Counted from the stretch's first letter, positions 12,677-32,959 are shown. The stretch: DNA of 64,000 nt from Nanobdellota archaeon (GCA_042571645.1 JBHPFW010000006.1:4131-68130), one strand, 5' to 3'. A program made the numbers and translations. Notes: a model not told the origin generated them from the letters alone.

Positions 12677-15600
12677 ATGAAAGCAATGGAAGCCTATAAA
12701 ATAAGAGGATTATTAGTGTTGGCGATTTCAGTACTTATGGGTATAGTGCTTGCTAATCTGGGCAATCTTTCTATTACAGGTTATTCTACAGTAGAATTAA
12801 ACAATACGATTTATGTTTATTCAGATACTATTATGGATGAGGATTTCTATAACTCTGATTACTCTTATTACCATGTTATTATTGAGAAGGATAATGTAAA
12901 ATTAGATTGTAATGATCTTCCTTTGATTGGAAATGAAACTGGAATAGGGATTTATTCAAATAAAAACAATATAACATTAGAGAATTGTTTTGTTGTTAAT
13001 TATGAGTATGGCATTGTACTTACTGGTAATGATTCTAATCTTATTAACACCAGAGCAGAGAATAATTTATTTGTGGATATAATGTATATGGAAGTTGAGG
13101 AATTTGAAATGGAAAATGCTGTGGCAGACAATGCTTCTAATGAAACACTAACTGAATCAGAAGCTAATTTAACACAAGATCCATTAGCAGAACCAAATAT
13201 TACAGATCCAGTGTCAGAGAGTGAACCTACTCAAGAAAATATTTCTACATCTGGAATACAAGAAGATCCTCAACCTCCACAAGATCCAATTACAATATTA
13301 TCAGGTAATGCACCAACACATTCACAGCCAATATTAAACTCAACAAATGGCTTATTCCATTCATCTGAGAATTTAACAGTCTATAACCAATCAACAAATG
13401 ATGGCGAAGGAGATAATGTTACTAATTCAATCTTATGGCTCAGGAATAAAAGAAGTTTCCCTGCAACACATGTAGATATAAATTATGATAATGTTATATT
13501 TAGGACTCCATTTGAGAATTATACTGTAAGTACAGATACTTATAAGGATTATTCTGTAAGTGACAGTACTATTACAGTATCAAATACTGTATGGAATGCA
13601 ACTGGAGGTCATGATGGTTATGGGGCTTATAAATTTACAGGTACTACTGGTTATTTGAAAACTACTGCAGATATAGGTGAAGGAGAAGCCAGTCTTACTG
13701 TTTTGGTTTGGGTAAAACCATCTCCTTCTCCTGCGCACATTGGTGATTTTGTAACAAAAAGAAATGTATACTATACTTTGCAGAACATAAGTAATAATGT
13801 ATGGGTTTATTTATCTGGTCTTAGCTCTGCTTGGACTCGATCTTCCTCAACTTTAAGCACAACCAATTGGAATCATGTTGCGTGGACTAAATCTGGATCA
13901 ACATTAAGACTATACATAAACGGTCAAGAAGATAGTGTATCTCCAGTTACTTTAACTTCAAGTAATCCATTAGCAAGCGGTATTCTTCATCCCTTAACTA
14001 TCGGAAATGTCGTCCTGAATACTGGCGCTATTGATGCTGACAGAGGATTTGACGGTCATATCGATGATGTGATGATATTAGATGTGGCTTTATCTGCTGA
14101 TCAAATTAAAGCAATGTATGATAGAACAAGCAATATTATTCGTTCTGATGAGACTGAAGTTAGCGATACTTGGCAGGCATGCATCACTCCTAACGACGGT
14201 ACAAGTGATGGTGCTACTAATTGCAGTGATACAAAAACAATTCTTTTGAGCAATCCGCCAACCCATTCTCAGCCAATATTAAGTTCAACTTCAGGAAATA
14301 ATCTTTACTCAGATAACTTGACTGTTTATAATCAATCAACCATTGATATTAACGGAGATTCTGTCAGCAATATTATTAATTGGTATAGGAACGATACGTC
14401 TATAGCAGTATTGAATATGCCGTTTGATTCTGCTGATTCTGCAGGTTCTGGAAAAACAAAAGATTACAGCGGTTCTGGTAATAATGGAACTCTTGCAGGA
14501 CATACTGTCTGGACAAGTGACGGTTATCTAGGCGGGGCTTATTATTTTGATGGTACAAATGATTATATTGATTTTGGTAATGATCCTGATCTAAGTTTTG
14601 AGAGAACAGATCCATTTTCTATTTCTGCGTGGGTTAAAATAGATGATGTTTCTTCAGTAAGACTGATATTTTCAAAATTAGCTGGCCCTACAGCTTATCC
14701 AGGTTATCAGTTTTTTGTACACACAAACGGACAGATTTATTTTGATTTATTCCGTGATTCTTCAACAACTAAATACATCAGGGTTTATGAAACTAGCAAT
14801 GAAGGTGTAGCTGATGGTGGTTGGCATCAGGTTACTGCAACTTATGATGGTTCAAGCACTGCTGCTGGTGTTAAAATATATTTAGATGGCGATGCAGTGT
14901 CAACCACTGTTGGTCAGGATACACTAGATGGTTCAATGCTTAACTCTGTCAGTGCGTATATTGGAACTAGAAGCGACGGCAGCTATGATTACAAAGGATA
15001 TGTTGACGAGGTTAATGTGTTTAATAGGGAATTATCTCCTGAGCAAATCAATGCTTTATACAATAACAGAACAGACTTAATTGTTTCACAAGAAACAGAA
15101 GTTAGCGATATCTGGAAAGCCTGCATAACACCAAATGATGGCTTTGTTGATGGTGTAACTAATTGCAGTACTAGTCTGACTATTGTTTCAAACATACCCC
15201 CAACACATAATCAGCCAATATTGAATTCTACTCTGGGAACAAATTTAACAACAGAAAACCTTACAGTTTATAATCAATCTACCAGTGATTTAGAAGGAGA
15301 TGGGGTAAATAATTCAATTAGATGGTTAAGAAACAGCAGAAGTTATCCTGCTACTCCAGAAAGTGTTTCTTATACAAATATGGTACTTAATATGCCCTTT
15401 GAGAATTATACAGGTTTATCAGACAATTCCGCTGATCATTCATTATATGGTAATAATGGTACGGTTTATGGAAATCCAGTCTGGAATTCAACAGGAGGCC
15501 ATGATGGTTATGCAGCTTATGATTTAGACGGAACAGGAGACTATATTGAGATAGCTGATGATGCTTCGTTAGAATCAACACAAATATCTCTTGGTGCTTG

Positions 15601-18600
15601 GGTAAAAAGAGAAGGTACAATGGGAACAGGAGTATGGCATAGAAGAATAATCAGTAAAAACTATCAAACTACATTTGTAGATCCATTTGATAGCTATGCG
15701 CTCTTAGTAGATAATTCAGTGAATTATTATATTGGTTTTAACATTGGTTGGGGAACAGGTGGAGGAAAGTATACTACTTATTGGACATCAACACCTCTTC
15801 CAGACGGAGAATGGACTCACTTATTCATGACAGTAAATCAAACGCAAGTTAAGTTATATATGAATGGAAATCTACTGACAACACAGACTGCAGGAGGAAA
15901 TCCAATATATAATAATGGTCCGTTGAGAATTGGTGCTATGGATCCGACACATGCAAGTGAAAGATTCTTTAATGGAAAAATTGATGATGTCAGAATATAT
16001 GATTTAAGTTTAACAGCAGATCAAATAAAAGAAATTTATCAAAACAAATCAGGAGTTATACAGTTTAATGAAACCTCTATAGATGATGTATGGCAGGCCT
16101 GTATTACTCCTTATGATGCTTATGGCGCAGGTAGTGAAAATTGCAGTAATAATCTGACTGTTTTAGCTCCTATTCCGAATTATGCTCCTGTTGTTTCAGA
16201 TATTGTTTTGAATGCAACTGATCATCCTAGCAATACCACCAATGCTAATCTTACTGTGTATTATAATTTGTCTGATTTAAATGATGACAACATTACTAAA
16301 GTAATTAATTGGTATAGGAATGATTCATCAATTACTGTTTTGAACATGCCATTTGATTCTAATAACTCTGCAGGTACTGGTAAGACTAAGGATTATTCTG
16401 GTTATGAAAATAATGGTACAGAAACTGGGGGAGTCGCTTGGACAAGTCAAGGTTATATCTCAGGGGCTTATGATTTTGCTGGTGATAATGATTACATCCA
16501 AATTGCAGACGATGATATTTTAAGTTTTGGTGATACATTAACAGATCAACCATTAACCATTTCTGCTTGGGTAAATATGGATGCTGCTACTTTATTCCCT
16601 ATTGTAGCTAAGGACGCTTCGACTTCAAATGTAGAGTATGTTTTCGGAACATCTTCAGCAGACTATCTTGTTTTAACGTTATATGATTTAAATTCAGCTA
16701 ATAGAATCCAAGCTTATACTGCTACAGGTGTAATGACTCCTTATGAGGGCATTTGGACTCAGTTAGTTGCAGTATATGATGGTTTTGGTAATGAGAGCGG
16801 TATAAATTTGTATATCGATGGAGTCCTTCAAACAGGTTTGACTAGAGGGGAAGTCGGAACTTATGAAGCAATGCATAATACTAATGCTGCTTTGTTTATC
16901 GGAAAAAGAGAAACTCCCAACCAGCGATATGCAAATAGCAGGATTGATGATGTAAGAGTGTTTAATAGAGAATTATCCACCGAACAAATCAAAGCTTTAT
17001 ACAATAACCGTACTAATTTAATTGTTTCACAAGAAACTAATGTAAATGATATCTGGAAAGCCTGCATAACACCAAATGATGGCCAAGTTGATGGCAGTAC
17101 TAATTGCAGTAATAATCTCACAGTTTTAGTTGGTAGTAATCAAGCTCCAACTCAAACCCAGCCAATATTAAACAGCAGTGATGCCACAAACAAATCAGCT
17201 TCAAACTTAACAGTTTATACTAGTATTTTTGATCCTAATGGAGATAATACAACTGCAATTATTAATTGGTATAAAGATAGTAGTAGTATTTCTGTATTGA
17301 ATATGCCGTTTGAAGGTGGCAGTACTTCTGGCAGCTCGACAGGACCAACAAACGGCACAACAAAAGATTATTCGGGCTATGGAAATAATGGAACTGCAAT
17401 TGCAAACTCATCAAACAATGGACCTCAATGGAGTTCGTCATCAGGATATATTGGTGGTGCTTATACATTTGATGGAGTGGATGATTATATTGAAGTAAAT
17501 CATTCCTCAAGTTTAAACATAGAGAATGAAATCACTTTGTCTGCTTGGGTAAAATCTAATGAAGAAGGTTATGTTGTTGTTAAGGATCCTTCTGCAGAAC
17601 AACAAACAGCATATTATATTAATAAGTCAGATTGTGATTATATACCAACTTGGGATGATGGCACTTGCGTTGGTCAAACTTTAACAGAGCCGCAATTTTT
17701 GACAATTGGACAAAACACTTTAACATGTAATTACACAGATACTCTATTAAACAATGTAGAAGTTACATCAGTCACACTTTACGGGGCGCATAATGTGGTT
17801 TGTACAAACGGTGTCCAATACTATTGGAATGGAACTTTATTAGGAACATCTGTTGATAGTTCTACTGCTTGTAATTTTTGTCTGCCTAGTCAAGATTTAA
17901 ATGCGCCTTATTACCATAATTTCACTCTTACAAATCCTAATTATTCTATTGGCGGCATTAACACATTCTCATTTACAAATTTAGCAGGAGGAAATGGTTA
18001 TGCGGGATTCATCGGCGGTCATCACACTCCAGCGTTAGGTTTAAGTGGATATGAGATGTTTAAAGTAACAGTAAACTATACTGTTTCTGGAAAATATACT
18101 CCCTTCTCATTAAGCACAATTAATGGAGGAGAGTTCTTAATTGGTAATGATAATTACAGAGCAATAAGTTCAGGTAGTATTAATGATGGTAATTGGCATC
18201 ACATTGCAGCAACATATAATGGTTCAGAAATGAGACTTTATGTAGATGGAAAACTAAATGCAACAAATACATCTTTTTCAGGTTCACTCCCAACAAATAC
18301 TGATCCTGTTTGGATCGGCAGGAATTATGATCCTGAAAACTCTACAGGTTATTTCAATGGAACAATAGATGAAGTTCAAATATACCCTGCAGCATTATCA
18401 GCACAACAGATAAAAGCTTTATACAACAACAGAACAGATTTAATAGTAAGTCAGGAGACATCTGGAGGAGAAAAATGGCAGGCTTGTGTAACACCAAATG
18501 ACGGTCAAGTTGATGGCAGCGAGAATTGCAGTAATAGTCTTACTGTAAGGGAAGTTGAATTAACTATTTGGGATGATAATGATTTAGCAGGAGGCAATCA

Positions 18601-21600
18601 GAACAAAACAAGAGGAGAATTAATTTCATTCTATGCCAATTATACTGAGAATGGCGGTATAGGACCAATAAATAACTCTATTGGCTGGTGCAATTTAACA
18701 ATTAATACAACTCCTGATGGACCATATGAAATGAGTTATAATTCTACATCTGGTTTGTGGTATCATAACAGGTCATTTAACAATGCAACAAATTATCAAT
18801 GGAATGTAACCTGTAATTCAACAGGTTATGAACAACTTACTAAAACAGATACAATTACAGTATATCCTGACTGTGTCACACCAGAGGATGAATACCAGTT
18901 TGAAAGTAACTCTCTTGTTAATTTCTGCAGCGGGTCTTATTCATTGGGTGCTACTGGTTCTTATTACCAGTTCGCTTATAGTTTCTATCTAGACAACACA
19001 CACAGTAATATCACTTTTATTTGTGATGATACTATACTTAATGGTCCGGGTGCAGGAAGCTTTAATTTCGCTTTCCTTATAATGGGTTCTCAAAACATTT
19101 CAATTATTGGATGTAATTTCTCTAATTTTGTAATAGCTACAGGATTATTAAATAATTTTGATACAATAAATCTTTCAAATAATTATTTCTCTAATGTATA
19201 TTCAAGCATATTTATTGCAAAAGGGAGAAATTTCCATATACTTAACAATACCTTGAATGGTGGAGCTGGAATTACATTGCGTGATGAATTTGGGGGGCCT
19301 GGAAATAATAGTGGAGGAAGGATAATTGGAAACACTATGATGAGTCCTTCTTCATCCATGGGTGGTTTAGCAGCTGGTGTTGTTTTTGATCTGGATCAAG
19401 AACAAACACTAACTGAAACAAGTGACATATACATAGCAAATAATACCATAATTAATTCAGGTGGTTTTGGAATTTCTTTAATGCAGGCAGATTCTAGGTC
19501 AACAATTAATAACATCACCATATCTAATAATAATATTTCAAATCCTAGTTCATATGGTATTTATATTGAAAACGCTTCAAATGTAATAGTAGATAACAAT
19601 CTAATTTCAGGAGCAACCTATGAAAGCATATATTCTGTTGCAGAAAATTCTGTTAAGATAAGAAACAATCAAATATATAATAACAATAATCGCCATGCAA
19701 TATATATGGGTTCTTCTGTTGAGGATAAATATGGTGTTTTAAATGGAGGCAGGGATTTTGTTATTTCAGGAAATACAATAAACAACAGCGGAGGTACTGG
19801 CACAAGAAATTCTTATTTTGCTTCATTATCACCTATAAGATTTAATGGCTATGACTTTAATGGTAATGGGGCAGGAATGATTGTGTTTGGTCTTGGGTCA
19901 GAAAGAAGAAGGAATGTTTTTGCTGATAATACTCCTTTTGAAAATATACTTTATGGGGTTCGGGGAGATAATTTCACTTTATCTTTGATTTATGACAATG
20001 TATTACAAAAGAACATAACCTTTTTCTATGAAGATGGTTTTAATGAAGATATCGAAAATTGCGCAGATCTTAGAAATGAGATAGGATCTGTAAATGTTTA
20101 TTATTGCCGTGAAAATACATTGATCTCTAATGGAGCTACAAGCGATTATACTTTTGATTCTTCTATTTTCAATTCAAGTTTTAATGTTACGCCAGGTTAT
20201 ACTAATCCTCCATATTTAAGATATGAATCCTGGTCTTATAATGCATCTGCAATTGAGATAGACAGTAACACAAATGTAACAATCAGTGATAATGTCTTGG
20301 ATAGAAATGATTATGGTATAACAATCTCCAATTCAACTACTGTTAACATAAGGAATATTACTGGAACCACAGTCACATCAGCATCTTATTATGGTTCTAA
20401 TAGTCCAAGAATATATGATGGCCAGAAATATCAAGATGTTCCATTACAAGATGGTGTAGGTAATGGTACAATATTATTTGTAGATACTACTGAATACAAG
20501 GTATATGGGGCTAATGATAAAGTTGAAATGCCTTTGGTTGACGGAACATTTAATTTCTCAGTGTGTCTTATTAATGCATTGGACACTTATTTCATAACAG
20601 GTTATTTTTATCCTCAATTAAATAAGACTGAATGCGAGGTGTTTGTGAATAATAGTTGTGGAGGCTGTAATCCAGTAGCAGAATATGTTGAATTCAATGT
20701 GTTTACAGCTCAAGGAGCAGGAAATAATTATGTTTGGGCTGGCAATTCAAGCACTACCGCTGTTTCAGGAACATATTATACAGATCCTCCATACATAAAT
20801 GTTGTTATTGCCAATAATGTGAAAAATTACATATCAATAGAAGCTCTTAATGGAGGAACTATCCAGAACATTAATCTTGATAATCCAGATAATGAAAATA
20901 TTGATGTGAAATCATCTTCTGATCTGATATTCAAAGACATAACAATAAATTCCGGAGGAAAAGGAATTATAATTGATCCTTCAAGCAATATAACAATAAG
21001 AGACAGCACAATTAATAGCACTTCAGGAGAAGGAATACTAATTTTCAATAATACAAATGCAATAATATACAATAACACAATAACATATAATTCAAGAAAC
21101 GGCATAAATATTTCCCTTAATGGTTCTGCCACAATTACAGAAAACACAATATGCTATAATAATTTGTTTGGAATTTACAGTCTTGATTCTGTGCTAAACC
21201 CAGATTATCCTTCTTTGATGAGCCAGAACAACTTTACTTGTGCAGGAGATAATCTGCAGGATGCAAAGCTCAAAAAAGAATGGTATGTGCAAGCCAGGAC
21301 AATCGACTCATACAGCCAGAATCTTTCATCTGCTTCTGTTAATCTTTATGAACCATCAACAAATTCAACTCCAAAATATACTGAAACAACAGATGTCAAT
21401 GGCTTGACACCATTATATGACCTGATAGCAACACAATATATTATTAATAACACTGACAGCCAATTGAATTCCACACCTCATAGAATCTATACAACAAAAT
21501 CAGGTTTCCAGAATGAATTAACATGGACAGTAACAGAATCAAATACCACTAGAGGAGATAATGAAATAATTCTTCTGTTAGGAAATGCTGCACTAAGAAT

Positions 21601-24600
21601 CTGGGATGATAAAGATCCAAGAGCTGGCAGCCAGAATAAAGGATCTACTGACAATATTTACTTCTATGCAAACTACACCAACTCAACAAGCAAAATACCA
21701 ATAGATGATAATACAGATGGCGGCTGGTGTAATATAACTATTAGTGATAATCCAGCAGATTCTTTTGCTATGAGTTATAATTCTTCAAATGGGTTATGGA
21801 ATCACAACAAAACCTTTGGAGCTGTGGGTTCTTATTCATGGAATGTAACCTGTAATGCAACAAATTATGAGAGCTTATATGCCATTGAGGCTATTTATGT
21901 TAATGCATTACCAACTCACAGCAGGCCATTGCTTATAGCATCTGATTATCCTGCTAACTCAACATATGCTAATTTGACTGTCTATAACCAATCAACTCAG
22001 GACAATGATGTTGGTTATGTGGCTAATATAATTAATTGGTTCAGAAATGGAAACTCATTAAATGTTTTGAACATGCCTTTTGAAGGAGGCTCAACTTCAG
22101 GTAATTCATCAGAAAATGGCACAGCAAGGGATTATTCAAATTACACAAATAATGGAATAGTAGTTAATGCTGCATGGAATAGAACTGCAGGCTATAATAA
22201 TTTTGGTGCTTATGAGTTTGATGGAGCAGGAGATTATATTGAACTGCCTCATTCATCTAGCCTGGATCTTACAGATGAAATAACAATATCTGTTTGGGTA
22301 AAATCAAATTCAGAAGGTTATGTTGTTGTTAAGGATCCTTATGAAACAGGACAGGCAATATATTATATAGAAAATGAAAGCTGTTCAGGTTGGGACGATG
22401 AAGGGTGCAACTCATATAATCCATATACTTATGAAGGCTTTTTAGGAAATAGTTCAGGTAGCACTCTTAAATGCAATTATACTGATACACTCCCAACAGA
22501 TGTAACAATAGATAGTATAGAAGTACAAGGTGCTATGGCGGCAAATTGTGCTCCAAATAATCCTATTAAATGGTGGTGGGGAAACACACTGATCGGACAA
22601 TTTGATGATACTGACGGCAGATGCGGCTGCAATCCTGATCCGCCTGCTATTATGAATTTCAGCCTCACTAATCCATCATATGATATCGGAGGTGAAAATT
22701 TTGTATACTTAAACAACTCTGGTAATTTTGCTAGTATTTTAGGAGGTTCTTATGCAGGATATAGTACAGGACAAATACTAAAAGTAACTGTGAACTATAC
22801 TGGCGGCAAGATAGTGCCGTTCTCTTTGAGCACAAGAAATGGCGGGGAGTTCTTCCTAAGAAACAATTCCTTCAAAGTTATTTCTACTAACAGCATAAAT
22901 GATGGTGATTGGCATCACTTGGCTGCTACTTATAATGGTTCAGAAATGAGATTGTATGTAGATGGGAAATTAAATGCAACTAGCACATCTTATTCTGGCA
23001 ATTTGCCAACAAATTCTGATCCAGTATGGATTGGCAGGCATTTTGATCCTAGAAACTTAACTGGATTTTTCAATGGCACTTTAGATGAAGTACAGATATA
23101 CCCTATAGCCTTATCTGCAGAACAAATTAAAGCCGTATATAATGATGGAACTTATGTAATAGTAAGCCAAGAAACATATGGTGGAGATACATGGAAAGCC
23201 TGCATAACAATAAATGATGGCTATACAGATGGTGCTACTAATTGCAGCAATGAAGTAACAATAGAAAACATAGCTCCTAATTTTACATTTACTAATATAA
23301 CTCCAAGTCCTGCTTACGCAAATGACACATTATTTGTAAATATAACGCCTCTAGATGAAGACAGCAGCACAATTACTGTTTGGATTAAATGGTTTGTCAA
23401 TGGCATTTTGAAATTCTGGGAGAGATTGACAGGAATATTTTCTGGACAGACTGTCCAGGCTAATCTTTCAAGCACTTATTTCAATAAGAGTGATAATGTA
23501 ACTGCAGAAGTTACTGTGGGTGACAATGTAGATAATGCTACAGCTCAAAATACTTCCGCTCTGACTATCGGAAATCTTGCTCCGTCTATTTCAGCTATTG
23601 GAATAAATTCAAGCAATAACTTAAATACATCAGCTGATACAATAACAGGATATTTTGTTTATAGTGATGCTGATTCAGATCTTCAGCAAAGCACAGAAAC
23701 AAAATGGTATATTGACGATTCATATGACTCTTCTTTTGATAATATTTTCGATATTGGGCCTGGAAACTTTACTAATACTCAACAAATTATATTCTCTGCA
23801 AGAGTTTCTGATGGAACTGCTTGGAGTAATTGGGCTAATTCATCAACTCTGGCAATAAGGAATAGTGCTCCATTCCAGGATAATCCATTACTGATATCTA
23901 TATTCGGAACAAATTTGACTACTGAGAATTTATCTGTGCAAAACATTTCAACACAAGATTATGATGGTGATAATGTTGAGAATATAATTAATTGGTATCT
24001 GAATGGCACTTCACTCACAACATTAAACCTGCCATTTGCTTCAAACCATTCTGCTGGAACAAATAAAACAAGGGATTATTCTGGCTATGGATTTAATGGC
24101 ACTGTTTATGGTGCTAATTGGAATCCCGGCAGATCAGGCTATTATGAATTTGATGGTGTAGATGATTATATTGAAACAAATGTTTCAGCTTTGAATAGTT
24201 CGATCTTTAGTATCGAATTATGGGCCAAATTTAATGATTATGAAGACAGAAGGCCTTTATTTGCTAAAGCAACCGCTTCAGACGATGTTTTAGCTATAGG
24301 TACAGACATTTTTGACGGAAGTACTAATATAGGACTTGGAATAAATAATGGTGGGTGGGATTATGTGGAATCCCAAACAAATCCAGTGCTGGGGCAATGG
24401 TATCATATAGTTGGAGTGCAGAACTCAACCTCGAAATTAATATATATTGATGGGGAATTGGAAAATACAGAATCAAATGTAATTCTTCCTGCAGGAAACA
24501 CAATTTTTATAGGCAAAAGGCGTTTCGGAGGAGCAATTCCAATAAACGGTTCTATTGCTGCTGTAAGAATATACAATAATTCTTTAACATCTGCTCAAAT

Positions 24601-27600
24601 CAAAGCATTATACAACAACAGAACAGATATGATTGTTTCTGAACAGACTTCTGATGGAGATATCTGGCAAGCATGCATGACTCCTAATGATGGTAGCATT
24701 GATGGAACTGAAAAATGCAGTAATAATATACTTGTATTGCCTCAAATTGGTGAGCAGCCTGTTGATACAGGATTTGGCGGAGGAAATACCACAAACTTTG
24801 ATACTGTTCCAAATTTATCAGATGTGGATACTGTGGTATTGCATAATGATAGTTATATGAAGCTTAATTGGACTAGTTCAGGATTAAATGTTTCTGGAGC
24901 AAACTTTTCTGAGACAGTTATATTTGGCGAAGGATGGGTTAATATTAATTTATCCACAATTAGTACTACTTTAAATTCCTCAGCTACAATTGAGTTGTAT
25001 AACCTGCCATTTGAAGAAACACCAATTGTTTATATTGATGGTGTGTTATGCACACAAGATTGTGATATTATTGGTTATTCTGGAACTACCTTGATTTTCA
25101 ATGTTAGCCACTTTACAAATTACAGCACAGGACCAAATTCTCAGCTAATGATTTGGGATGATACAGATCCAGAAGGAGGCAGCCAAAGCAAGATAATAAA
25201 TGACAGCATATTCTTTATTGCTAACTATACTAATGTAACCTCTGGCAAGTACATTGACAATGTGTCAAACAATGGCTGGTGTAATATTAGTTTCAGTTAT
25301 GATCCTATAGGTCCATTTGAGATGATATTTAATTACACAGGCAATAATACCTGGGCATATAACAGATCATTCAATGACAGTAATACTTATAATTGGAATG
25401 TCTCGTGTAATGCTACAAATTATGAATTATTTGAATTATCAGATCAAGTATATATCACTCCATTAGAAAACAGACCCCCAACTCATTCCAAGCCAATAAT
25501 AAGTTCAACTAATGGCTTTAATAGAACTACAGACAATATAACTGTTTATAATCAATCCACAAATGATCCTGATAGAAATAATTTAACTAATATTGTTGAC
25601 TGGAGAAAAGATGGAGGTACCTTTGCAATACTTAATGCTCCATTTGATACTAACAGTTCTAATGTTGTGAGAGATTATTCTAATAATGAGTCTAATTTAT
25701 CAGCATCTGCAGGAGTTCAATGGACACCAAATGGCTATATTGGAGGAGGTTATTATTTTGATGATATTGGTAATAATGATTATCTTAATTATTCCTTGAA
25801 TAAATATGATTTTGGATTTAGTGGATCTGATCAAATGACTGTCATGGCGTGGGTTTATGCTGACAGATTAGGAGGTGAGACTCATTATATTGTTGAAAAT
25901 GATGAAAATTGGATCTTTTATGTTAATGCTGATCGTAAAGTAGTTTTAACATTGATTTCATCTGGAGGAAGTTACTGGAATACTTACAGATGTGACTCAC
26001 CACTAGTACAAACAGGTAGGTGGTATCATATTACCGGAGTAGTTATAGATTCAACAAAAACAGGAACACAAAATGCAATGAAAATTTATTTTGATGGGCA
26101 AGAATGCATAACACCTTTTAAAAATCCTAACACTGGGTGGCAAAACTTAGGTAGTAAAGGATTAGCAATAGGTGCTAGATCTTTTATTGGTCTTTATGGA
26201 CAAAACTCTTGGAACGGAACAATCGATGAATTCAAGATATTCCCAACTGCTCTGACTGAAGAACAGATAAAAGCAATAGCTCAAAACAAAACAGACACAA
26301 TTGTCTCTCAAGAAACCTCTGTTGGAGATAAATGGCAGGCTTGTGTAACACCAAATGATGGAGAATATGATGGTTCAACCAAGTGCACTAATAATTTATC
26401 TGTTGTGTTAAGTCATGCTCCGACTCATTCTGAGCCAGTTCTTAATTCTACTTCAGGAAATGGCCTAAGTAGAGATAATCTTACTGTCTATAATGTTTCA
26501 ACCATTGACATTGAGCCAGACAATATTACAAATATCATTAACTGGAAAAAAGATGGCAGTAGTATTACTGTGTTGAATATGCCATTTGATTCTCCAGATA
26601 GTGCAGGTTCTGGAAAGACTAAGGATTATTCTGACAATGAAAATAATGGAACAAACTATGGCAGTATTGTTTGGTCTCCTGATGGATATTATGGCGGAGG
26701 ATATATTTTCGATGGAACAGATGATTATATTTATGTACCTAATACTAATAGCTTGACATCATTCCCTATTGGATTGACAGTTAGTGTTTGGGTTAAACAA
26801 ACTGGCAGTGATACAGGAGGAATTGTGTTATCAAGATGGGGTGTTAGTGGTGTTGAATCTGGTTATGGTCTTCACAGTAATGATAATTGGTATATGGGTG
26901 ATGGAACAAATTGGGGTTTTATTTCTGCAGGAAGGCTTAGAGACAGCAATTGGCATCATTATGTTCTTGTTTGGGATACTTCAACCATGACAAGTTACAG
27001 AGATGCAACTTATGTTGATTCAACCAATGCAGCTGGTGCTGTATTCAATAATCCTGGCAATAGCAGATTGGTAATTGGTGATGATAACAGGATAGCAAAT
27101 CCCGGTGCAAATATATTTAGTGGTCAGATAGATGAAGTAAGGATTTACAACAAAACATTATCAATAGAACAGATCAATGCTTTATACAATAACAGAACAG
27201 ATTTAATAGTAAGCCAGGAAACTTCTGTTGGAGATACTTGGCTGGCTTGTGTAACACCAAATGATGGTTTGGTAGATGGTGCAGAAAACTGCAGTAATAC
27301 AGTTAATATTATACTAAGCAATCCTCCAACACATTCAAAGCCAATAATAAATTCAACATCAGGATATAATAGAATAGAAGACAATCTAACTGTTATTAAT
27401 CAATCAACTGCAGATATTGATGGAGATGCAGTTAGAAATATTGTTAATTGGTATAGAAATGATTCTTCTATAATGGTTCTTAATATGCCGTTTGATTCAA
27501 ACAATAGTGCAGGAAGTGGCAAGACAAAGGATTATTCTGGTTATGGAAATAATGGCACTATTAATGGAGCAACTTGGACATCTAGTGGTTATACAGGTGG

Positions 27601-30600
27601 AGGTTATGATTTTGATGGAACTGAAGATTATATTGAAATACCAAATGATGCAAGCATAGATTTTTCAAACACAGATCCCTTCTCAATATCTGCATGGGTA
27701 AAAACCACTCAATATAGCGGAATGTTTGTAGCTAAAATAGATGGTTCGCCTTTTACAGGTTATGAATTTTTAGTATATGCTGACCAGCTGTCTGTTTGGT
27801 TGATAAATAATTATGGCGGTGGTAATTATTTATTTGTTCAGGAAACAGGGACAGGAGCAGTAAATGATGGAAATTGGCATCATGTTACAATGACTTATAA
27901 TGGTTCAAGCTCTGCTTCAGGTGTTAAGTTATATGTTGATGGAAGCAAAATAACAACGACTACTGAGGTGGATAGTTTATCTGCTTCAATCTCAAGTACA
28001 ACTCCCGTGAGAATAGGAGAAAGAGGAGATAATGAGCTTGATTATAATGGATTAATAGACGAAGTACTGATCTACAACCATACATTAACACCACAACAAA
28101 TTAAAGCAGTATACAACAACCGCACAGACTTAATTGTTTCTAATGAGACTTATCTGAATGATATCTGGAAAGCCTGCATTACTCCAACTGATGGTTTTGT
28201 TGATGGTGCTACCAATTGCAGTGACTCTGTGACAGTAGTTGATAATTTCCCGCCAACTCATTCACAGCCAATCCTAAACTCAACATTAGGAACAAACAAA
28301 ACAGATGAAGATTTAACTGTTTATAATAGATCTACATCTGATTTAGACAATGACCCTGTTACTAATATTATTGATTGGTATGTAAATAGCATAAACCAGC
28401 CAAGTCTCAAGAACCAATGGACAATAAATTCAGCAACTACCAGCAAAGGCCAGAGTTGGTATGCGTGCATAACACCAAATGATGGAACAATTAATGGATC
28501 AATAAATTGCAGTAACACATTAACAATAGAAAATACTGGCCCTGGATATACATTCACCAATATAACACCAGAAACAGCATACACTAATGACACATTGTCT
28601 GTTAATGTAACACCAACAGATATTGATAGTGATACTTTGACAGTTTGGATTAAATGGTTTGTCAATGGTATACTCAAATTCTGGGAGAAAATCACAGGAA
28701 TAATCTCTGGCTCTATAGTACAGCTAAATCTCTCAAGCAGCAACTTCACCAAAGGCGATAATGTAACTGCAGAAGTTACAATAGGTGATGCTGATGTAAA
28801 TCTTACTCCAACAAATACTTCAACAATAAGTATATTGAATTCTCTGCCTACGCATCAATTGCCATTCCTTAATTCAACAACACTATTGAACAGAACAGAT
28901 GAAAACTTGACTGTTTACAACAGATCAACTACAGATCCAGATGGAGACGAAATAAAAAACATCATTAATTGGAAACTCAACTCTAACAGTTTTGCAGAAT
29001 TGAATCTTCCATTTGAAGGAGGCAGTAATTCCACATATACAAAAGATTATGCACAAGACACAACAATATTAGTAAATAGTGCAACTTGGAATGCAGCAGG
29101 AGGTTATGATAATAATGGCGGTTATGAATTTGATGGTGCAGATGATTACATTGCTTTAGATATGAACTATAGTTCTGCTGGTGAAATCTCTGAACTTACG
29201 GTTTGTGCTTGGTATAAAACAGAGTATGCAGGCCTTGAGTGGAATGCCAATGGTGCTTTAGTTGATTTTGATAATACTGAATATTATGGCTTATTTGTAA
29301 ATGGTGTTAATGGAAATATTGTCTTCAGAACAACAAGCTCTACAGGTTATTCTAATTCCACAGTTGGTGCAACAAATACAAATGACGGCAGCTGGCATTT
29401 TGCCTGTGGAGTATTTGACAGTTCAGAAGAATATGATAAGAAAGTTTATTATGATGGTGCGCTTGGCAGCCAGCAAAATAATTATCCAACTGGTGTAAAT
29501 CTCGGAACCGGTACAACAAGATTTGGTTTTATTGGAGACACTTCAGAAGCAGTTTCATTTGACGGCATTAAAGGCAGCAAATATTTCAACGGCTCAATCG
29601 ATGAAGTAATGATTTATCACAAAGCTTTGTCTGCTGAGCAAATAAAAACTTTATACAACAGCAGAACTGATTTAATAGTATCTCAGGAAACTGCTGCTTA
29701 TGATGTATGGCAATCATGCATAACACCAAATGATGGCACAGCAGACAGCACAACATTATGCAGTAATGAAATAACTGTATGGGATATTCCTCCTGAAATC
29801 CATAATGTAACTATGAACTCAACTGACCATTTGAACAGAACAAATGCAACATTAAATGGATATTTTGATTATTATGAGCCATCAGGAGCATTGCAGCAGG
29901 AAAATGAAACTAAATGGTATAAGAATAATGCAGAGGTTTCTGCTTTAGCTAATAAAACAATCATCAGTCCAAGCAACACAACAAAAGGAGAAATATGGAA
30001 GTTCGGTGCAAGAGTTTATGATGGAACATCATGGAGTACATGGGATAATTCCTCGGAGTTGACAATTAATAATGCACTCCCGACTCAATCTTCACCATTG
30101 CTAAGTTCAAGCTCTGGAACAAACACTCCAACTGAGAACTTGACAGTTTATAATCAAAGCACTATTGATATTGATGGAGACACAGTAACAAATTATATTG
30201 ATTGGTATCTTGATGGAGTTTATAATTCAACCTTTGATGATAACAATACAATAAACTCTAACTATACAATACTTGGCCAAATTTGGAAAGCCTGCATAAC
30301 CCCGTATGATGGAACAATAAACGGAACAAAATTATGCAGTGCAAATTTAACAATAATTCCTCCTGCTCCTGCTCGTGTTGGTGGAGCTGCCGGTGGTGGT
30401 GGAGCTCCACCTATACCAGAATCTTGTTATGATGGTGTACAAAATAATGGAGAATCTGGAGTAGATTGTGGAGGAAAATGTCCAAGATGCCCATCATGTT
30501 CTGATGGAAAGATGAATTGTCATGACGACAAATGTGAAGAAGGCACAGACTGTGGAGGTCCGTGTGCTGTTGGTTGTGGACCAGCACCAAGATGTAATGA

Positions 30601-31567
30601 TGGAATAAAGAATGGTTTTGAAACAGGCATAGACTGTGGCGGGTATTGTAAATCTTGTATTCCAGTAATTAAGCCAGAGGAAATTAAGCCAGCAGATAAG
30701 GTTATTCCTCCTAAAGAACTTCCAGAGGAAAAAATCATAATAGAAGAAGTTTTCAGAAAAGTTAAAAAAGGAGTAACAGAAACAGTCCTTTTCCCCGGAA
30801 GAGTTTCAAGAAACTTGAAAACTTCGATAGAAAAATTCCTAAGTCGAAAATTCAATATAGGACTTCTTTCAATACTCACTTTAATCAGCATCCTGTTAAT
30901 CTTTGAAATGACAAGGGCAATCCGCATAGATGCTATAGAACAACTAATGGCCTCTAAGATAATCCAGAGATATGAAAAAGCTAAATATTATCTTGGAAAG
31001 ATCCTTGTGTTGGAGGAAGAAAGACATAATGCCAGAATTGCCTCGAGACTTAAGAGTTTCAATGAATCTTTGACTAAGTTTGAAGAAAGAAGAAAACTAA
31101 GAGATATAATAAGAGAAAAATTATCAGGCGGAAACAGTCAGAGAACAAAAGGATTATTAATGCTGATGATTCTGATAATTGCTGTTTTGATAATATCTAA
31201 TATTGGCGCTTTTTCAATAATAGGATATTCAACTACAGAAATTAATAGAGTTAATAGTGATCTTGCTGTTAATTCTGCTATTGATGCTGATAATGATGAA
31301 CAGGTTATTGCCGAGGCTGTAGAGGATGAAAATAATGATTCCCTAGGAATTGCATTAGCAATAGGAATGATTTTAATATCGTCATTTTTAGCATTACTAA
31401 TAGTGTTTAGACCGTCAGTATCTGCCTCAGCAAAGGTGATTGAAGATTCCAATAAAGATATCAATAAAGATTTAAATAACGATTCCAATAAAGATCAAAA
31501 GAAAGATCTGGAGATGAAAACCCCCCAGAGAATACATAAAGAAGACGAGGAAAAAAAGGATATTTAA
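12677..31567 (+). CDS. Giant (6296-aa) surface protein: 11 nested LamG modules, beta-helix region, Ig-like modules, Cys-rich stalk and a three-TM tail
   Basis: One uninterrupted 18.9-kb ORF in an AT-rich sequence. It has an N-terminal signal/TM and repeated LamG signatures (W..VAATY.GS...LYVDG....; IDEV.IYN..LS..QIKALYNNRTDLIV). PbH1-like repeats run from about 18870 to 21190. The stalk at 30425-30658 is homologous to that of the preceding gene. Confidence 0.9.
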   Translation: MKAMEAYKIRGLLVLAISVLMGIVLANLGNLSITGYSTVELNNTIYVYSDTIMDEDFYNSDYSYYHVIIEKDNVKLDCNDLPLIGNETGIGIYSNKNNITLENCFVVNYEYGIVLTGNDSNLINTRAENNLFVDIMYMEVEEFEMENAVADNASNETLTESEANLTQDPLAEPNITDPVSESEPTQENISTSGIQEDPQPPQDPITILSGNAPTHSQPILNSTNGLFHSSENLTVYNQSTNDGEGDNVTNSILWLRNKRSFPATHVDINYDNVIFRTPFENYTVSTDTYKDYSVSDSTITVSNTVWNATGGHDGYGAYKFTGTTGYLKTTADIGEGEASLTVLVWVKPSPSPAHIGDFVTKRNVYYTLQNISNNVWVYLSGLSSAWTRSSSTLSTTNWNHVAWTKSGSTLRLYINGQEDSVSPVTLTSSNPLASGILHPLTIGNVVLNTGAIDADRGFDGHIDDVMILDVALSADQIKAMYDRTSNIIRSDETEVSDTWQACITPNDGTSDGATNCSDTKTILLSNPPTHSQPILSSTSGNNLYSDNLTVYNQSTIDINGDSVSNIINWYRNDTSIAVLNMPFDSADSAGSGKTKDYSGSGNNGTLAGHTVWTSDGYLGGAYYFDGTNDYIDFGNDPDLSFERTDPFSISAWVKIDDVSSVRLIFSKLAGPTAYPGYQFFVHTNGQIYFDLFRDSSTTKYIRVYETSNEGVADGGWHQVTATYDGSSTAAGVKIYLDGDAVSTTVGQDTLDGSMLNSVSAYIGTRSDGSYDYKGYVDEVNVFNRELSPEQINALYNNRTDLIVSQETEVSDIWKACITPNDGFVDGVTNCSTSLTIVSNIPPTHNQPILNSTLGTNLTTENLTVYNQSTSDLEGDGVNNSIRWLRNSRSYPATPESVSYTNMVLNMPFENYTGLSDNSADHSLYGNNGTVYGNPVWNSTGGHDGYAAYDLDGTGDYIEIADDASLESTQISLGAWVKREGTMGTGVWHRRIISKNYQTTFVDPFDSYALLVDNSVNYYIGFNIGWGTGGGKYTTYWTSTPLPDGEWTHLFMTVNQTQVKLYMNGNLLTTQTAGGNPIYNNGPLRIGAMDPTHASERFFNGKIDDVRIYDLSLTADQIKEIYQNKSGVIQFNETSIDDVWQACITPYDAYGAGSENCSNNLTVLAPIPNYAPVVSDIVLNATDHPSNTTNANLTVYYNLSDLNDDNITKVINWYRNDSSITVLNMPFDSNNSAGTGKTKDYSGYENNGTETGGVAWTSQGYISGAYDFAGDNDYIQIADDDILSFGDTLTDQPLTISAWVNMDAATLFPIVAKDASTSNVEYVFGTSSADYLVLTLYDLNSANRIQAYTATGVMTPYEGIWTQLVAVYDGFGNESGINLYIDGVLQTGLTRGEVGTYEAMHNTNAALFIGKRETPNQRYANSRIDDVRVFNRELSTEQIKALYNNRTNLIVSQETNVNDIWKACITPNDGQVDGSTNCSNNLTVLVGSNQAPTQTQPILNSSDATNKSASNLTVYTSIFDPNGDNTTAIINWYKDSSSISVLNMPFEGGSTSGSSTGPTNGTTKDYSGYGNNGTAIANSSNNGPQWSSSSGYIGGAYTFDGVDDYIEVNHSSSLNIENEITLSAWVKSNEEGYVVVKDPSAEQQTAYYINKSDCDYIPTWDDGTCVGQTLTEPQFLTIGQNTLTCNYTDTLLNNVEVTSVTLYGAHNVVCTNGVQYYWNGTLLGTSVDSSTACNFCLPSQDLNAPYYHNFTLTNPNYSIGGINTFSFTNLAGGNGYAGFIGGHHTPALGLSGYEMFKVTVNYTVSGKYTPFSLSTINGGEFLIGNDNYRAISSGSINDGNWHHIAATYNGSEMRLYVDGKLNATNTSFSGSLPTNTDPVWIGRNYDPENSTGYFNGTIDEVQIYPAALSAQQIKALYNNRTDLIVSQETSGGEKWQACVTPNDGQVDGSENCSNSLTVREVELTIWDDNDLAGGNQNKTRGELISFYANYTENGGIGPINNSIGWCNLTINTTPDGPYEMSYNSTSGLWYHNRSFNNATNYQWNVTCNSTGYEQLTKTDTITVYPDCVTPEDEYQFESNSLVNFCSGSYSLGATGSYYQFAYSFYLDNTHSNITFICDDTILNGPGAGSFNFAFLIMGSQNISIIGCNFSNFVIATGLLNNFDTINLSNNYFSNVYSSIFIAKGRNFHILNNTLNGGAGITLRDEFGGPGNNSGGRIIGNTMMSPSSSMGGLAAGVVFDLDQEQTLTETSDIYIANNTIINSGGFGISLMQADSRSTINNITISNNNISNPSSYGIYIENASNVIVDNNLISGATYESIYSVAENSVKIRNNQIYNNNNRHAIYMGSSVEDKYGVLNGGRDFVISGNTINNSGGTGTRNSYFASLSPIRFNGYDFNGNGAGMIVFGLGSERRRNVFADNTPFENILYGVRGDNFTLSLIYDNVLQKNITFFYEDGFNEDIENCADLRNEIGSVNVYYCRENTLISNGATSDYTFDSSIFNSSFNVTPGYTNPPYLRYESWSYNASAIEIDSNTNVTISDNVLDRNDYGITISNSTTVNIRNITGTTVTSASYYGSNSPRIYDGQKYQDVPLQDGVGNGTILFVDTTEYKVYGANDKVEMPLVDGTFNFSVCLINALDTYFITGYFYPQLNKTECEVFVNNSCGGCNPVAEYVEFNVFTAQGAGNNYVWAGNSSTTAVSGTYYTDPPYINVVIANNVKNYISIEALNGGTIQNINLDNPDNENIDVKSSSDLIFKDITINSGGKGIIIDPSSNITIRDSTINSTSGEGILIFNNTNAIIYNNTITYNSRNGINISLNGSATITENTICYNNLFGIYSLDSVLNPDYPSLMSQNNFTCAGDNLQDAKLKKEWYVQARTIDSYSQNLSSASVNLYEPSTNSTPKYTETTDVNGLTPLYDLIATQYIINNTDSQLNSTPHRIYTTKSGFQNELTWTVTESNTTRGDNEIILLLGNAALRIWDDKDPRAGSQNKGSTDNIYFYANYTNSTSKIPIDDNTDGGWCNITISDNPADSFAMSYNSSNGLWNHNKTFGAVGSYSWNVTCNATNYESLYAIEAIYVNALPTHSRPLLIASDYPANSTYANLTVYNQSTQDNDVGYVANIINWFRNGNSLNVLNMPFEGGSTSGNSSENGTARDYSNYTNNGIVVNAAWNRTAGYNNFGAYEFDGAGDYIELPHSSSLDLTDEITISVWVKSNSEGYVVVKDPYETGQAIYYIENESCSGWDDEGCNSYNPYTYEGFLGNSSGSTLKCNYTDTLPTDVTIDSIEVQGAMAANCAPNNPIKWWWGNTLIGQFDDTDGRCGCNPDPPAIMNFSLTNPSYDIGGENFVYLNNSGNFASILGGSYAGYSTGQILKVTVNYTGGKIVPFSLSTRNGGEFFLRNNSFKVISTNSINDGDWHHLAATYNGSEMRLYVDGKLNATSTSYSGNLPTNSDPVWIGRHFDPRNLTGFFNGTLDEVQIYPIALSAEQIKAVYNDGTYVIVSQETYGGDTWKACITINDGYTDGATNCSNEVTIENIAPNFTFTNITPSPAYANDTLFVNITPLDEDSSTITVWIKWFVNGILKFWERLTGIFSGQTVQANLSSTYFNKSDNVTAEVTVGDNVDNATAQNTSALTIGNLAPSISAIGINSSNNLNTSADTITGYFVYSDADSDLQQSTETKWYIDDSYDSSFDNIFDIGPGNFTNTQQIIFSARVSDGTAWSNWANSSTLAIRNSAPFQDNPLLISIFGTNLTTENLSVQNISTQDYDGDNVENIINWYLNGTSLTTLNLPFASNHSAGTNKTRDYSGYGFNGTVYGANWNPGRSGYYEFDGVDDYIETNVSALNSSIFSIELWAKFNDYEDRRPLFAKATASDDVLAIGTDIFDGSTNIGLGINNGGWDYVESQTNPVLGQWYHIVGVQNSTSKLIYIDGELENTESNVILPAGNTIFIGKRRFGGAIPINGSIAAVRIYNNSLTSAQIKALYNNRTDMIVSEQTSDGDIWQACMTPNDGSIDGTEKCSNNILVLPQIGEQPVDTGFGGGNTTNFDTVPNLSDVDTVVLHNDSYMKLNWTSSGLNVSGANFSETVIFGEGWVNINLSTISTTLNSSATIELYNLPFEETPIVYIDGVLCTQDCDIIGYSGTTLIFNVSHFTNYSTGPNSQLMIWDDTDPEGGSQSKIINDSIFFIANYTNVTSGKYIDNVSNNGWCNISFSYDPIGPFEMIFNYTGNNTWAYNRSFNDSNTYNWNVSCNATNYELFELSDQVYITPLENRPPTHSKPIISSTNGFNRTTDNITVYNQSTNDPDRNNLTNIVDWRKDGGTFAILNAPFDTNSSNVVRDYSNNESNLSASAGVQWTPNGYIGGGYYFDDIGNNDYLNYSLNKYDFGFSGSDQMTVMAWVYADRLGGETHYIVENDENWIFYVNADRKVVLTLISSGGSYWNTYRCDSPLVQTGRWYHITGVVIDSTKTGTQNAMKIYFDGQECITPFKNPNTGWQNLGSKGLAIGARSFIGLYGQNSWNGTIDEFKIFPTALTEEQIKAIAQNKTDTIVSQETSVGDKWQACVTPNDGEYDGSTKCTNNLSVVLSHAPTHSEPVLNSTSGNGLSRDNLTVYNVSTIDIEPDNITNIINWKKDGSSITVLNMPFDSPDSAGSGKTKDYSDNENNGTNYGSIVWSPDGYYGGGYIFDGTDDYIYVPNTNSLTSFPIGLTVSVWVKQTGSDTGGIVLSRWGVSGVESGYGLHSNDNWYMGDGTNWGFISAGRLRDSNWHHYVLVWDTSTMTSYRDATYVDSTNAAGAVFNNPGNSRLVIGDDNRIANPGANIFSGQIDEVRIYNKTLSIEQINALYNNRTDLIVSQETSVGDTWLACVTPNDGLVDGAENCSNTVNIILSNPPTHSKPIINSTSGYNRIEDNLTVINQSTADIDGDAVRNIVNWYRNDSSIMVLNMPFDSNNSAGSGKTKDYSGYGNNGTINGATWTSSGYTGGGYDFDGTEDYIEIPNDASIDFSNTDPFSISAWVKTTQYSGMFVAKIDGSPFTGYEFLVYADQLSVWLINNYGGGNYLFVQETGTGAVNDGNWHHVTMTYNGSSSASGVKLYVDGSKITTTTEVDSLSASISSTTPVRIGERGDNELDYNGLIDEVLIYNHTLTPQQIKAVYNNRTDLIVSNETYLNDIWKACITPTDGFVDGATNCSDSVTVVDNFPPTHSQPILNSTLGTNKTDEDLTVYNRSTSDLDNDPVTNIIDWYVNSINQPSLKNQWTINSATTSKGQSWYACITPNDGTINGSINCSNTLTIENTGPGYTFTNITPETAYTNDTLSVNVTPTDIDSDTLTVWIKWFVNGILKFWEKITGIISGSIVQLNLSSSNFTKGDNVTAEVTIGDADVNLTPTNTSTISILNSLPTHQLPFLNSTTLLNRTDENLTVYNRSTTDPDGDEIKNIINWKLNSNSFAELNLPFEGGSNSTYTKDYAQDTTILVNSATWNAAGGYDNNGGYEFDGADDYIALDMNYSSAGEISELTVCAWYKTEYAGLEWNANGALVDFDNTEYYGLFVNGVNGNIVFRTTSSTGYSNSTVGATNTNDGSWHFACGVFDSSEEYDKKVYYDGALGSQQNNYPTGVNLGTGTTRFGFIGDTSEAVSFDGIKGSKYFNGSIDEVMIYHKALSAEQIKTLYNSRTDLIVSQETAAYDVWQSCITPNDGTADSTTLCSNEITVWDIPPEIHNVTMNSTDHLNRTNATLNGYFDYYEPSGALQQENETKWYKNNAEVSALANKTIISPSNTTKGEIWKFGARVYDGTSWSTWDNSSELTINNALPTQSSPLLSSSSGTNTPTENLTVYNQSTIDIDGDTVTNYIDWYLDGVYNSTFDDNNTINSNYTILGQIWKACITPYDGTINGTKLCSANLTIIPPAPARVGGAAGGGGAPPIPESCYDGVQNNGESGVDCGGKCPRCPSCSDGKMNCHDDKCEEGTDCGGPCAVGCGPAPRCNDGIKNGFETGIDCGGYCKSCIPVIKPEEIKPADKVIPPKELPEEKIIIEEVFRKVKKGVTETVLFPGRVSRNLKTSIEKFLSRKFNIGLLSILTLISILLIFEMTRAIRIDAIEQLMASKIIQRYEKAKYYLGKILVLEEERHNARIASRLKSFNESLTKFEERRKLRDIIREKLSGGNSQRTKGLLMLMILIIAVLIISNIGAFSIIGYSTTEINRVNSDLAVNSAIDADNDEQVIAEAVEDENNDSLGIALAIGMILISSFLALLIVFRPSVSASAKVIEDSNKDINKDLNNDSNKDQKKDLEMKTPQRIHKEDEEKKDI
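13306..18547 (+). repeat. Nested modules 1-5 (N-half of small domain + LamG + C-half)
   Basis: Each unit reads P-T-H-[SN]-Q-P-I-L-N-S..ENLTVYNQST.D..GD.V.N.I.W.RN, then a LamG of about 190-370 aa, then SQET...D.W.ACITPNDG..DG..NCS..LT. The LamG C-ends fall at about 14200, 15140, 16115, 17080 and 18500. Confidence 0.75.
18870..21190 (+). other. Right-handed parallel beta-helix (PbH1/NosD-like) region
   Basis: Periodic ~22-25-aa repeats rich in N/I/G, for example NISIIGCNFSNF, INLSNNYFSNV, HILNNTLNGG, ITISNNNISNPSSYGIYIENASNVIVDNNLISG, NITIRDSTINSTSGEGILIFNNTNAIIYNNTITYNSRNGINI. Confidence 0.6.
21904..30358 (+). repeat. Modules 6-13: six LamG-split copies, two uninterrupted copies and related small domains
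   Basis: The LamG C-ends fall at about 23220, 24690, 26360, 27265, 28195 and 29735. The uninterrupted copies are at about 28255-28530 and 30080-30358. Confidence 0.7.
30425..30658 (+). repeat. Cys-rich stalk, second copy (3 repeats)
   Basis: The sequence is CYDGVQNNGESGVDCGGKCPRC / CSDGKMNCHDDKCEEGTDCGGPCAVGC / CNDGIKNGFETGIDCGGYCKSC. It is preceded by VGGAAGGGGAPP. It aligns with 12045-12277 at both the protein and DNA level. Confidence 0.7.
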
Positions 31568-32916: not shown

Positions 32917-32959
32917 TTCTGACGACTATATGCTATTTGGGGGGTGTCAAGTGGTATTT

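Follow-up and report, generated by a model that had tools for sequence, protein, structure and literature searches.

LamG Heads Nested within an Ig-like Stalk Module: a Probable Lectin Comb in Giant Surface Proteins of a Nanobdellota Archaeon

How are the LamG domains of giant archaeal surface proteins built into the chain that carries them? The question is raised by a stretch of 64,000 nucleotides from a Nanobdellota archaeon (GCA_042571645.1, JBHPFW010000006.1:4131-68130; hereafter the window), in which positions 12677..31567 of the + strand encode a surface protein of 6296 aa (B6296). This protein is identical to NCBI MFC1691007.1, which is annotated on a 76-kb contig as 'LamG-like jellyroll fold domain-containing protein [Nanoarchaeota archaeon]'. 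Among the huge proteins of archaea no domain is commoner than Laminin_G_3, whose function there has been described as 'not understood' (PMC11573180). An earlier note on this DNA had claimed that a module of ~95 aa, found uninterrupted in a few places, is reused 14 times in two genes as a bracket around a complete LamG domain. The analysis described here supports such a nested architecture and suggests that it forms a multivalent lectin comb for host attachment; as the best explanation of the data, this joint reading is given a probability of about 0.72.

The C-terminal half of the repeat carries the motif W-x-AC-x-TPNDG, whose copies were counted with the regular expression W.[AS]C..[PI].D. 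There are 13 matches in B6296, 3 in J2400 (a 2400-aa protein with LamG, fn3 and FG-GAP repeats, encoded on the - strand at 50950-58152), and 2 in A1256 (a 1256-aa subtilase with a Peptidase_S8 match at E 1e-38, encoded upstream of B6296 on the + strand at 8882-12652). Alignment of these 18 units divides them into 14 composites (11 in B6296, 3 in J2400) and 4 continuous modules of ~96 aa. The number and coordinates of the composites given in the earlier note hold, and the uninterrupted copies lie where it had placed them (11405-11989, 28241-28546, and 30071-30373), the spacer between their two W residues being ~26 aa where ~25 had been claimed. In the composites an insert of ~220 aa (~380 aa in two units), bordered by '...NIINWYxNxx' and '...LIVSQETxxxDxWxAC...', separates N-half from C-half. 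A hidden Markov model (HMM) built from the 4 intact copies alone, a check that had been proposed at the outset, matches every one of the 14 composites as two pieces, with independent E-values (1e-4 to 1e-19) that lie far outside chance expectation. Of the HMM, the N pieces span positions 2 to ~50/57 (a few extend into the start of LamG), the C pieces span 57-63 to 97-98 (with one exception, which begins at 48), and the break lies at position ~57 of 99. Two-piece matches with a common break mean that the insertion point is the same in all 14 units, as had been claimed; it does not, however, directly follow the NW[YR]xN strand, but comes after a short C' strand, 2-3 residues further on. An HMM made from the two A1256 copies alone, which belong to a different gene, finds 27 stretches in B6296 and 6 in J2400. 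DNA identity among the repeats is only 65-82%, and they are therefore old duplicates under selection rather than an assembly artefact. Recent cassette shuffling or gene conversion is unsupported: near-identical bracket DNA was sought, and none above 82% identity was found.

B6296 contains 11 composite units, 2 uninterrupted modules, and at least one Cys-less module relative, together with two beta-helix regions, a Cys-rich triple repeat, and C-terminal transmembrane segments; its N-terminus is a hydrophobic segment that may be a signal or an anchor. All of its units lie on the + strand. Composite B1 (13304..14257, aa 210-527; N-half, LamG, C-half) leads into B2 (14246..15196, aa 524-840), B3 (15188..16177, aa 838-1167), B4 (16169..17140, aa 1165-1488), which has the most divergent N-half, and B5 (17132..18562, aa 1486-1962). 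Two right-handed beta-helix regions (aa ~2065-2970, ~18870-21590; Pfam Beta_helix, E 1.6e-19) then separate the composite blocks. Beyond them come B6 (21902..23278, aa 3076-3534), B7 (23861..24748, aa 3729-4024), which is isolated, with no composite adjoining it on either side, and the run B8 (25466..26419, aa 4264-4581), B9 (26411..27322, aa 4579-4882), and B10 (27314..28249, aa 4880-5191). In B10, the unit that was modelled, the N-half occupies 27314-27466, LamG ~27467-28114, and the C-half 28115-28249. The uninterrupted module B_u1 (28241..28546, aa 5189-5290) comes next, followed by B11 (28838..29797, aa 5388-5707), which has on its C-terminal side the divergent, Cys-less uninterrupted relative (29792..30073, aa 5706-5799; E 6.9e-7, HMM 5-98) and on its N-terminal side a module-like stretch seen by eye only. 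The second uninterrupted module, B_u2 (30071..30373, aa 5799-5899), stands directly before the Cys-rich and transmembrane anchor cassette. In J2400, on the - strand, J1 (57091..58017, aa 46-354) directly follows the signal peptide, J2 (56167..57087) covers aa 356-662, and J3 (55237..56139, aa 672-972) is followed by an fn3 domain. The two remaining uninterrupted modules stand in tandem in A1256 (11405..11989 on the + strand, aa 842-938 and 938-1036), and the first of these was also modelled.

A third level of nesting is seen in B5 and B6, where LamG is itself broken after 'GYVVVKD' and resumes at 'PFSLST.NGGEF'. The inserts contain 6 Cys each and measure 171 aa in B5 (17588-18100) and 160 aa in B6 (22337-22816), and in both units the Laminin_G_3 match falls into two stretches around them. 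Searched against the other 149 representatives of the family (see below), an HMM of this 6-Cys insert finds no further copy, and Pfam returns nothing for it.

What is the module that has been interrupted? An AlphaFold2 model of the intact copy from A1256 (aa 842-938; 49-sequence alignment) has a predicted local-distance difference test score (pLDDT) of 96.6 and a predicted template-modelling score (pTM) of 0.86. It is an immunoglobulin-like (Ig-like) sandwich of FN3-type topology, with strands in the order A-B-C-C'-E-F-G (A, residues 11-14; B, 25-28; C, 41-48; C', 51-53; E, 61-62; F, 72-80; G, ~89-95). Foldseek places FN3 domains of titin, myomesin, and cytokine receptors as its best PDB matches (TM-score 0.6-0.7), and nearly all of the first 50 PDB matches are FN3 domains (TM-score 0.5-0.7, probability ~1.0). 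FN3 (PF00041), PKD (PF18911), and Ig_2 have the same seven-strand Ig-like sandwich, with a B-F disulfide in many members. Sequence profiles return little: the window modules have no match in Pfam or NCBIfam even at E <= 10, seven module sequences have none to fn3 (PF00041) at the same limit, and PKD_4 (PF18911; gathering score 27 bits) has none in the window modules, while generic relatives of the module give full-length but sub-threshold matches to PKD_4 (13-17 bits) or Ig_2. Profile searches of PDB sequences with the bracket gave only matches at chance level or weak Ig-like ones, to antibodies and, at E 0.018, to a phage decoration protein. The module is marked by a signature of its own: the BC loop reads DxDGD, strand C carries a W, the FG loop reads [TP]xDG, and an alternative disulfide joins F and G. 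All of 49 diverse modules retain D34 and D81, and this invariance suggests a possible Ca2+ site. The ~96-aa module is thus predicted to be an autonomous Ig-like beta-sandwich of FN3 type without a curated family, and the uninterrupted copies share this fold with the flanks of the composites.

Do the two halves rebuild this sandwich when a LamG domain lies between them? B10 and the following intact module (411 aa) were modelled with AlphaFold2 from an 18-sequence alignment. Over residues 1-310 the block means of pLDDT range from 79 to 98, the N-half scoring 92-97 and the C-half 93-98; the pTM of the chain is 0.75, the last 100 residues being poorly covered, a value that would fit a rigid body of ~310 residues and not one of ~220. 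The secondary structure assigned by DSSP to the flanks equals that of the intact module over 52 + 35 positions, bar one single-residue E (N-part '-----EE---EEEE...EEEE---EE-------EEEEEEEE--EE'; C-part 'EE-HHH-----EEEEEEEEE----E---EE---EE'). LamG residues 53-272 of the composite model stand in place of only the 7-residue C'-E loop (NQLKNLT, residues 54-60). The model therefore favours a single sandwich from which LamG is an excursion; for the bracket as the rigid clasp that the earlier note had proposed, the argument is one of model confidence.

Evidence that is independent of AlphaFold comes from covariation. A set of 542 composite units was assembled from 150 related proteins and 45 genome loci, and mean-field direct-coupling analysis (DCA) was applied to the concatenated halves of 494-521 composite brackets. 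The first-ranked pair is the F-G Cys pair (columns 65/79), which is present in 377/542 units. The second, which is the top pair between the halves, couples column 27 in strand B of the N-half with column 64 in strand F of the C-half; among the 542 units these columns read V-A in 271, A-V in 61, and C-C in 31. Column 27 is a Cys in 33 units and column 64 in 34, with 31 units having both; these 31 B-F Cys-Cys composites lack the F-G Cys pair. A disulfide between strands B and F is the classical pin of the Ig fold, and the B-F Cys pair is the commonest state of the intact generic modules (59/162). In the composites it would bridge the 220-aa insert. The same-unit coupling of columns 27 and 64 (7.30) exceeds all five same-protein controls.

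These data bear on a different parse of the chain, in which the units alternate linearly: the C-half of one unit and the N-half of the next would form a circularly permuted small domain, and the LamG domains would be beads on a string. In tandem runs C-half(i) does directly adjoin N-half(i+1), and in the small tandem set the 27-64 coupling of N(i) with C(i-1) is 2.44, against 2.98 for the true pairing, in a comparison of only 157 pairs that is under-powered. The intact copies, however, are ordered N-mid-C and are modelled at pLDDT 96.6, and every protein has as many N-halves as C-halves. B7, B11, and J1 (which comes straight after a signal peptide) have no neighbouring half to borrow; in view of the isolated composites B7 and B11, each N-half must therefore pair with its own C-half. 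A lone composite with no C-half before it is likewise modelled with an N-half at pLDDT 92-97 and the DSSP pattern of the intact module. With the full-set coupling also favouring the same unit, linear alternation is very improbable. Taken together, flank pLDDT of 92-98, matching DSSP, the 27-64 covariation, and the 31 Cys-Cys pairs support the packing of the halves into one sandwich around an excursive LamG, as the earlier note had proposed.

The inserted domain itself is readily identified as Laminin_G_3 (PF13385, of the ConA-like lectin/glucanase clan), with the gathering score of 27.6 bits exceeded. In B6296 the matches reach E 3.2e-124 and 2.8e-136 (5 + 6 stretches), and in J2400 E 1.2e-62 (3 stretches). 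Foldseek with the composite model, for which a pLDDT of 83-98 is recorded over the composite, finds the lectin-like N-terminal jelly rolls of BoNT/TeNT Hc at E 1e-12, the LamG part only being reported. Mean pairwise identity is 49-50% among the brackets and 33% among the LamG heads.

The bracket is widespread. An exhaustive profile search for its homologues, counted as representatives clustered at 50% identity, finds 4811 clusters at E <= 1e-3 and 610 at E <= 1e-30, whereas a word-indexed search with the two tandem intact modules found 2 fragments only. The best 150 of the 4811 clusters are proteins of 0.9-7.8 kaa (thousand amino acids), and 89 of these 150 carry composites. In this set 495 N-halves pair with a following C-half; 420 of the intervening gaps measure 200-249 aa, and LamG is present in 456/461 long gaps. 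A pattern derived from 8 close C-halves was also run against species-representative genomes, and composites are present in 43/45 of the loci found (89 composites vs 3 intact copies). These figures support the earlier suggestion that bracket plus LamG is the evolving unit. The composite loci, which come almost without exception from DPANN archaea, are labelled Woesearchaeota, Nanoarchaeota, Micrarchaeota, or 'uncultured Methanosarcinales', and the related proteins bear the public names 'LamG-like jellyroll', 'DUF2341', or 'hypothetical'. Only two loci are bacterial, L040 (a Bacteroidales metagenome-assembled genome, MAG) and L043 (a Peribacteria MAG), and it is these two that lack composites; they have C-half-like motifs (3 and 4 matches, respectively) and no LamG composite.

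Could the flanks then simply belong to an enlarged LamG family, as strands that extend it at the N- and C-terminus, with no separate domain at all? In the DPANN loci they nearly always accompany LamG, as the 89 composites and 3 intact copies indicate, and public annotation recognises LamG only. Against this, the 4 intact copies in the window and 162 modules in related proteins (184 full-length matches to the intact-module HMM before removal of N-half-plus-LamG false positives) have no LamG. A generic intact form, mostly with the Cys(B-F) pair ('D.DGD...Y.W..NG....L....KGD.v.C.VTP.DG'), occurs in long LamG-free arrays, including one in a bacterial protein from a Rhodobacterales MAG. The Laminin_G_3 profile (positions 1-151) maps wholly between the flanks, and the intact module folds by itself as an Ig-like sandwich at pLDDT 96.6. 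The proposal that the flanks are LamG edge strands is refuted by the intact copies, and a family of this enlarged kind is scarcely credible.

How would such a nested unit work? In the mechanism proposed, a complete LamG jelly roll takes the place of the 7-residue C'-E loop of the bracket, and strands A-B-C-C' of the N-half and E-F-G of the C-half would close round the two LamG termini to rebuild a single sandwich. In FN3 topology the N-terminus shares its pole with the BC, FG, and C'-E loops. The chain would enter and leave each sandwich at opposite poles, so that tandem units would form a continuous stalk. Two tethers at the N-terminal pole would hold each LamG out to the side, close to where the preceding module joins and next to the conserved acidic BC (DxDGD) and FG (NDGxxDG) loops. 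The product would be a membrane-anchored, glycosylated fibre showing up to 11 divergent lectin-type heads. B6296 contains 258 N-x-S/T sequons, compared with 129 +/- 10 expected from composition-shuffled sequences, and a similar excess of ~2x over shuffled expectation is found across the whole open reading frames (ORFs) of B6296, A1256, J2400, D3367, and H1043, in keeping with extracellular proteins that are heavily N-glycosylated. The likely function is that of a multivalent lectin comb for host attachment: with it a DPANN (Nanoarchaeota) episymbiont may recognise and hold the glycans of the host-cell surface. DPANN LamG surface proteins have previously been proposed to mediate host attachment (PMC10266531).

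The same architecture might instead serve in a protective or structural glycoprotein coat, or as a carbohydrate-processing scaffold, an alternative that we regard as unlikely but deserving of consideration. Glycoside hydrolases and the lectin domains of sialidases are among the ConA-like folds. There are weak Pfam side matches to the Sialidase N-terminal domain, Pentaxin, and the trans-sialidase C-terminal lectin domain; B6296 also contains two beta-helix regions, and among the genes next to it is one for a subtilase that has the same anchor cassette. No catalytic family, however, rises above threshold, and the heads diverge faster than the scaffold (33% vs 49-50% identity), as is typical of binding heads under diversifying pressure. 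In characterised adhesins, moreover, split-domain geometry serves ligand presentation (PMC12077191), and the literature repeatedly ties DPANN LamG proteins to host contact (PMC10266531).

Several points weigh against the nested comb. When an N-half is joined to the C-half of another unit of the same protein, the 27-64 coupling still scores 4.5-4.75 (compared with 7.30 for true pairs), and part of this signal is therefore lineage; the narrow margin of the tandem-neighbour control has been given above. For the small module Foldseek gives E-values that are weak (>= 6e-3). The packing of the halves and the rigidity of the LamG-bracket junction are read from pLDDT, pTM, DSSP, and covariation, and should be taken as predictions. 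As to function, LamG_3 domains can also be structural or enzymatic, and J2400 has no predicted C-terminal anchor. Finally, ~15 archaeal loci are labelled 'uncultured Methanosarcinales', and restriction to DPANN is therefore not certain, although this may be a pipeline label rather than the true taxonomy.

Doubly tethered heads in the loops of stalk domains have precedents. In integrin beta the betaI domain is inserted in an Ig-like hybrid domain, which is itself inserted in a PSI domain, and in the pneumococcal pilus adhesin RrgA a vWFA head is nested in CnaB/Ig-like stalk domains. Both resemble the archaeal composite in having a doubly tethered head in a loop of a beta-sandwich stalk, with nesting at more than one level; unlike it, they have vWFA heads and one unit per chain, and there is no homology. 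In the short arm of laminin, an L4 domain is inserted in a laminin-type EGF-like (LE) module. There too a globular domain splits a small rod-forming repeat and leaves the rod unbroken, but the host module is disulfide-knotted and EGF-like rather than Ig-like, and the protein is eukaryotic.

The closest parallel lies in the repeats-in-toxin (RTX) adhesins of bacteria (MpIBP, Vibrio cholerae FrhA, and Aeromonas hydrophila AhLap; PMC10523503), giant repetitive surface proteins in which an Ig-like stalk domain is interrupted by a globular head, often a beta-sandwich lectin or carbohydrate-binding module. Their split domains project ligand-binding domains off the axis of the adhesin, the termini of the head being adjacent and its binding site facing away from the fibre (PMC12077191, PMC10865825), and further nesting is found there too (an insert within vWFA within a beta-roll). 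The RTX adhesins, however, belong to Gram-negative bacteria and have type I secretion and RTX repeats, whereas the composites are found in a DPANN archaeon and Pfam scans of the window proteins give no match to RTX/HemolysinCabind. They have 1-3 split units near the C-terminus, compared with up to 11 per protein here. The split domain of FrhA (PMC10865825; 12 + 106 aa) and the second split domain of AhLap (PMC12077191) are broken after the first strand; the archaeal bracket is split after the fourth, at the C'-E loop, into ~53 + 37 aa. The archaeal head is always Laminin_G_3, and the composite is conserved across hundreds of proteins. No sequence relationship to the RTX split domains was detected. 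The giant LamG proteins of DPANN archaea (nanohaloarchaeal, PMC10266531; PMC11573180) belong to the same protein class and have the same head domain, but their descriptions list LamG copies only, with no Ig-like bracket or nesting.

The earlier claim of novelty thus stands in part: no description of an archaeal FN3-like/LamG composite was found in the literature searched, and the composite appears to be previously undescribed, but the split-domain principle is already known from the bacterial RTX adhesins and is not a new category. A more ambitious account would have archaea invent this principle independently, in a cassette evolving DPANN-wide, with lectin combs of up to 11 heads, a third nesting level in two units, and heads that act as determinants of host range in episymbiosis; all of this together is put forward tentatively, at somewhat less than even odds.

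The setting of these genes provides further observations. The window is AT-rich (GC 0.29-0.37), and five very large ORFs are interspersed in it with housekeeping genes of archaeal type, for topoisomerase I, NurA, and a Toprim protein. An ORF of 183 aa (8334-8885, +) with a Sigma70_r4_2-type helix-turn-helix overlaps the start of the subtilase gene, and the arrangement suggests a gene string of regulator, protease, giant adhesin, and PfkB kinase. A1256 (11708-12268) and B6296 (30083-30649) have a C-terminal cassette in common (68.6% DNA identity), made up of an intact module, three Cys-rich 'C.DG..N..E.G.DCGG.C' repeats (for which there is no Pfam match), and a transmembrane anchor. Protease and adhesin may be co-anchored through this cassette, and the subtilase might process the adhesin. 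Another module of ~100 aa, '(L)xIWDDxDxxGGxQxK...WNVxCNxTxYE', occurs in 4 copies across the subtilase and B6296 (~11099-11401, ~18569-18871, and B6296 aa ~2975-3075 and ~4160-4260); a Pfam scan of one copy gave no match.

Near its C-terminus (~31139-31246, aa 6155-6190), B6296 has a second segment much like its own N-terminal signal (GLLMLMILIIAVLIISNIGAFSIIGYSTTE vs GLLVLAISVLMGIVLANLGNLSITGYSTVE). The N-terminal stretches compared were those of B6296 (12698-12790) and of the subtilase (8882-8990), the latter of which has LSNLGKLAMTGY. The tail segment might serve as a motif for sorting or processing that has yet to be characterised, or it might be the fused start of a downstream ORF. Further along the + strand, an ORF of 3367 aa (32930-43033) encodes another giant protein. 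It has ~10 tandem repeats of ~115 aa, with self-similarity at 36780-39396, a long region rich in Cys (118 Cys), and, towards the C-terminus, HEFSHSIGGLRDEY, an HExxH, metalloprotease-like motif.

If the nested reading of B6296 and J2400 is correct, the LamG copies of such proteins are not beads on a string but heads that bud from an unannotated Ig-like stalk module, and the proteins acquire a physical model: a rigid stalk with lateral, doubly tethered, fast-diverging heads. The domain boundaries would be set correctly for expression, structure work, and the choice of constructs, and a large new family (4811 clusters at 50% identity) would merit a curated model. The rule that a split domain marks a ligand-binding domain would extend from bacterial RTX adhesins to archaea, as an example of convergent adhesin design. 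The constant bracket would also be a sequence handle with which to find and compare every ligand-binding head in the giant proteins of DPANN archaea, so that candidate host-recognition modules of these uncultivated symbionts could be selected by sequence alone.

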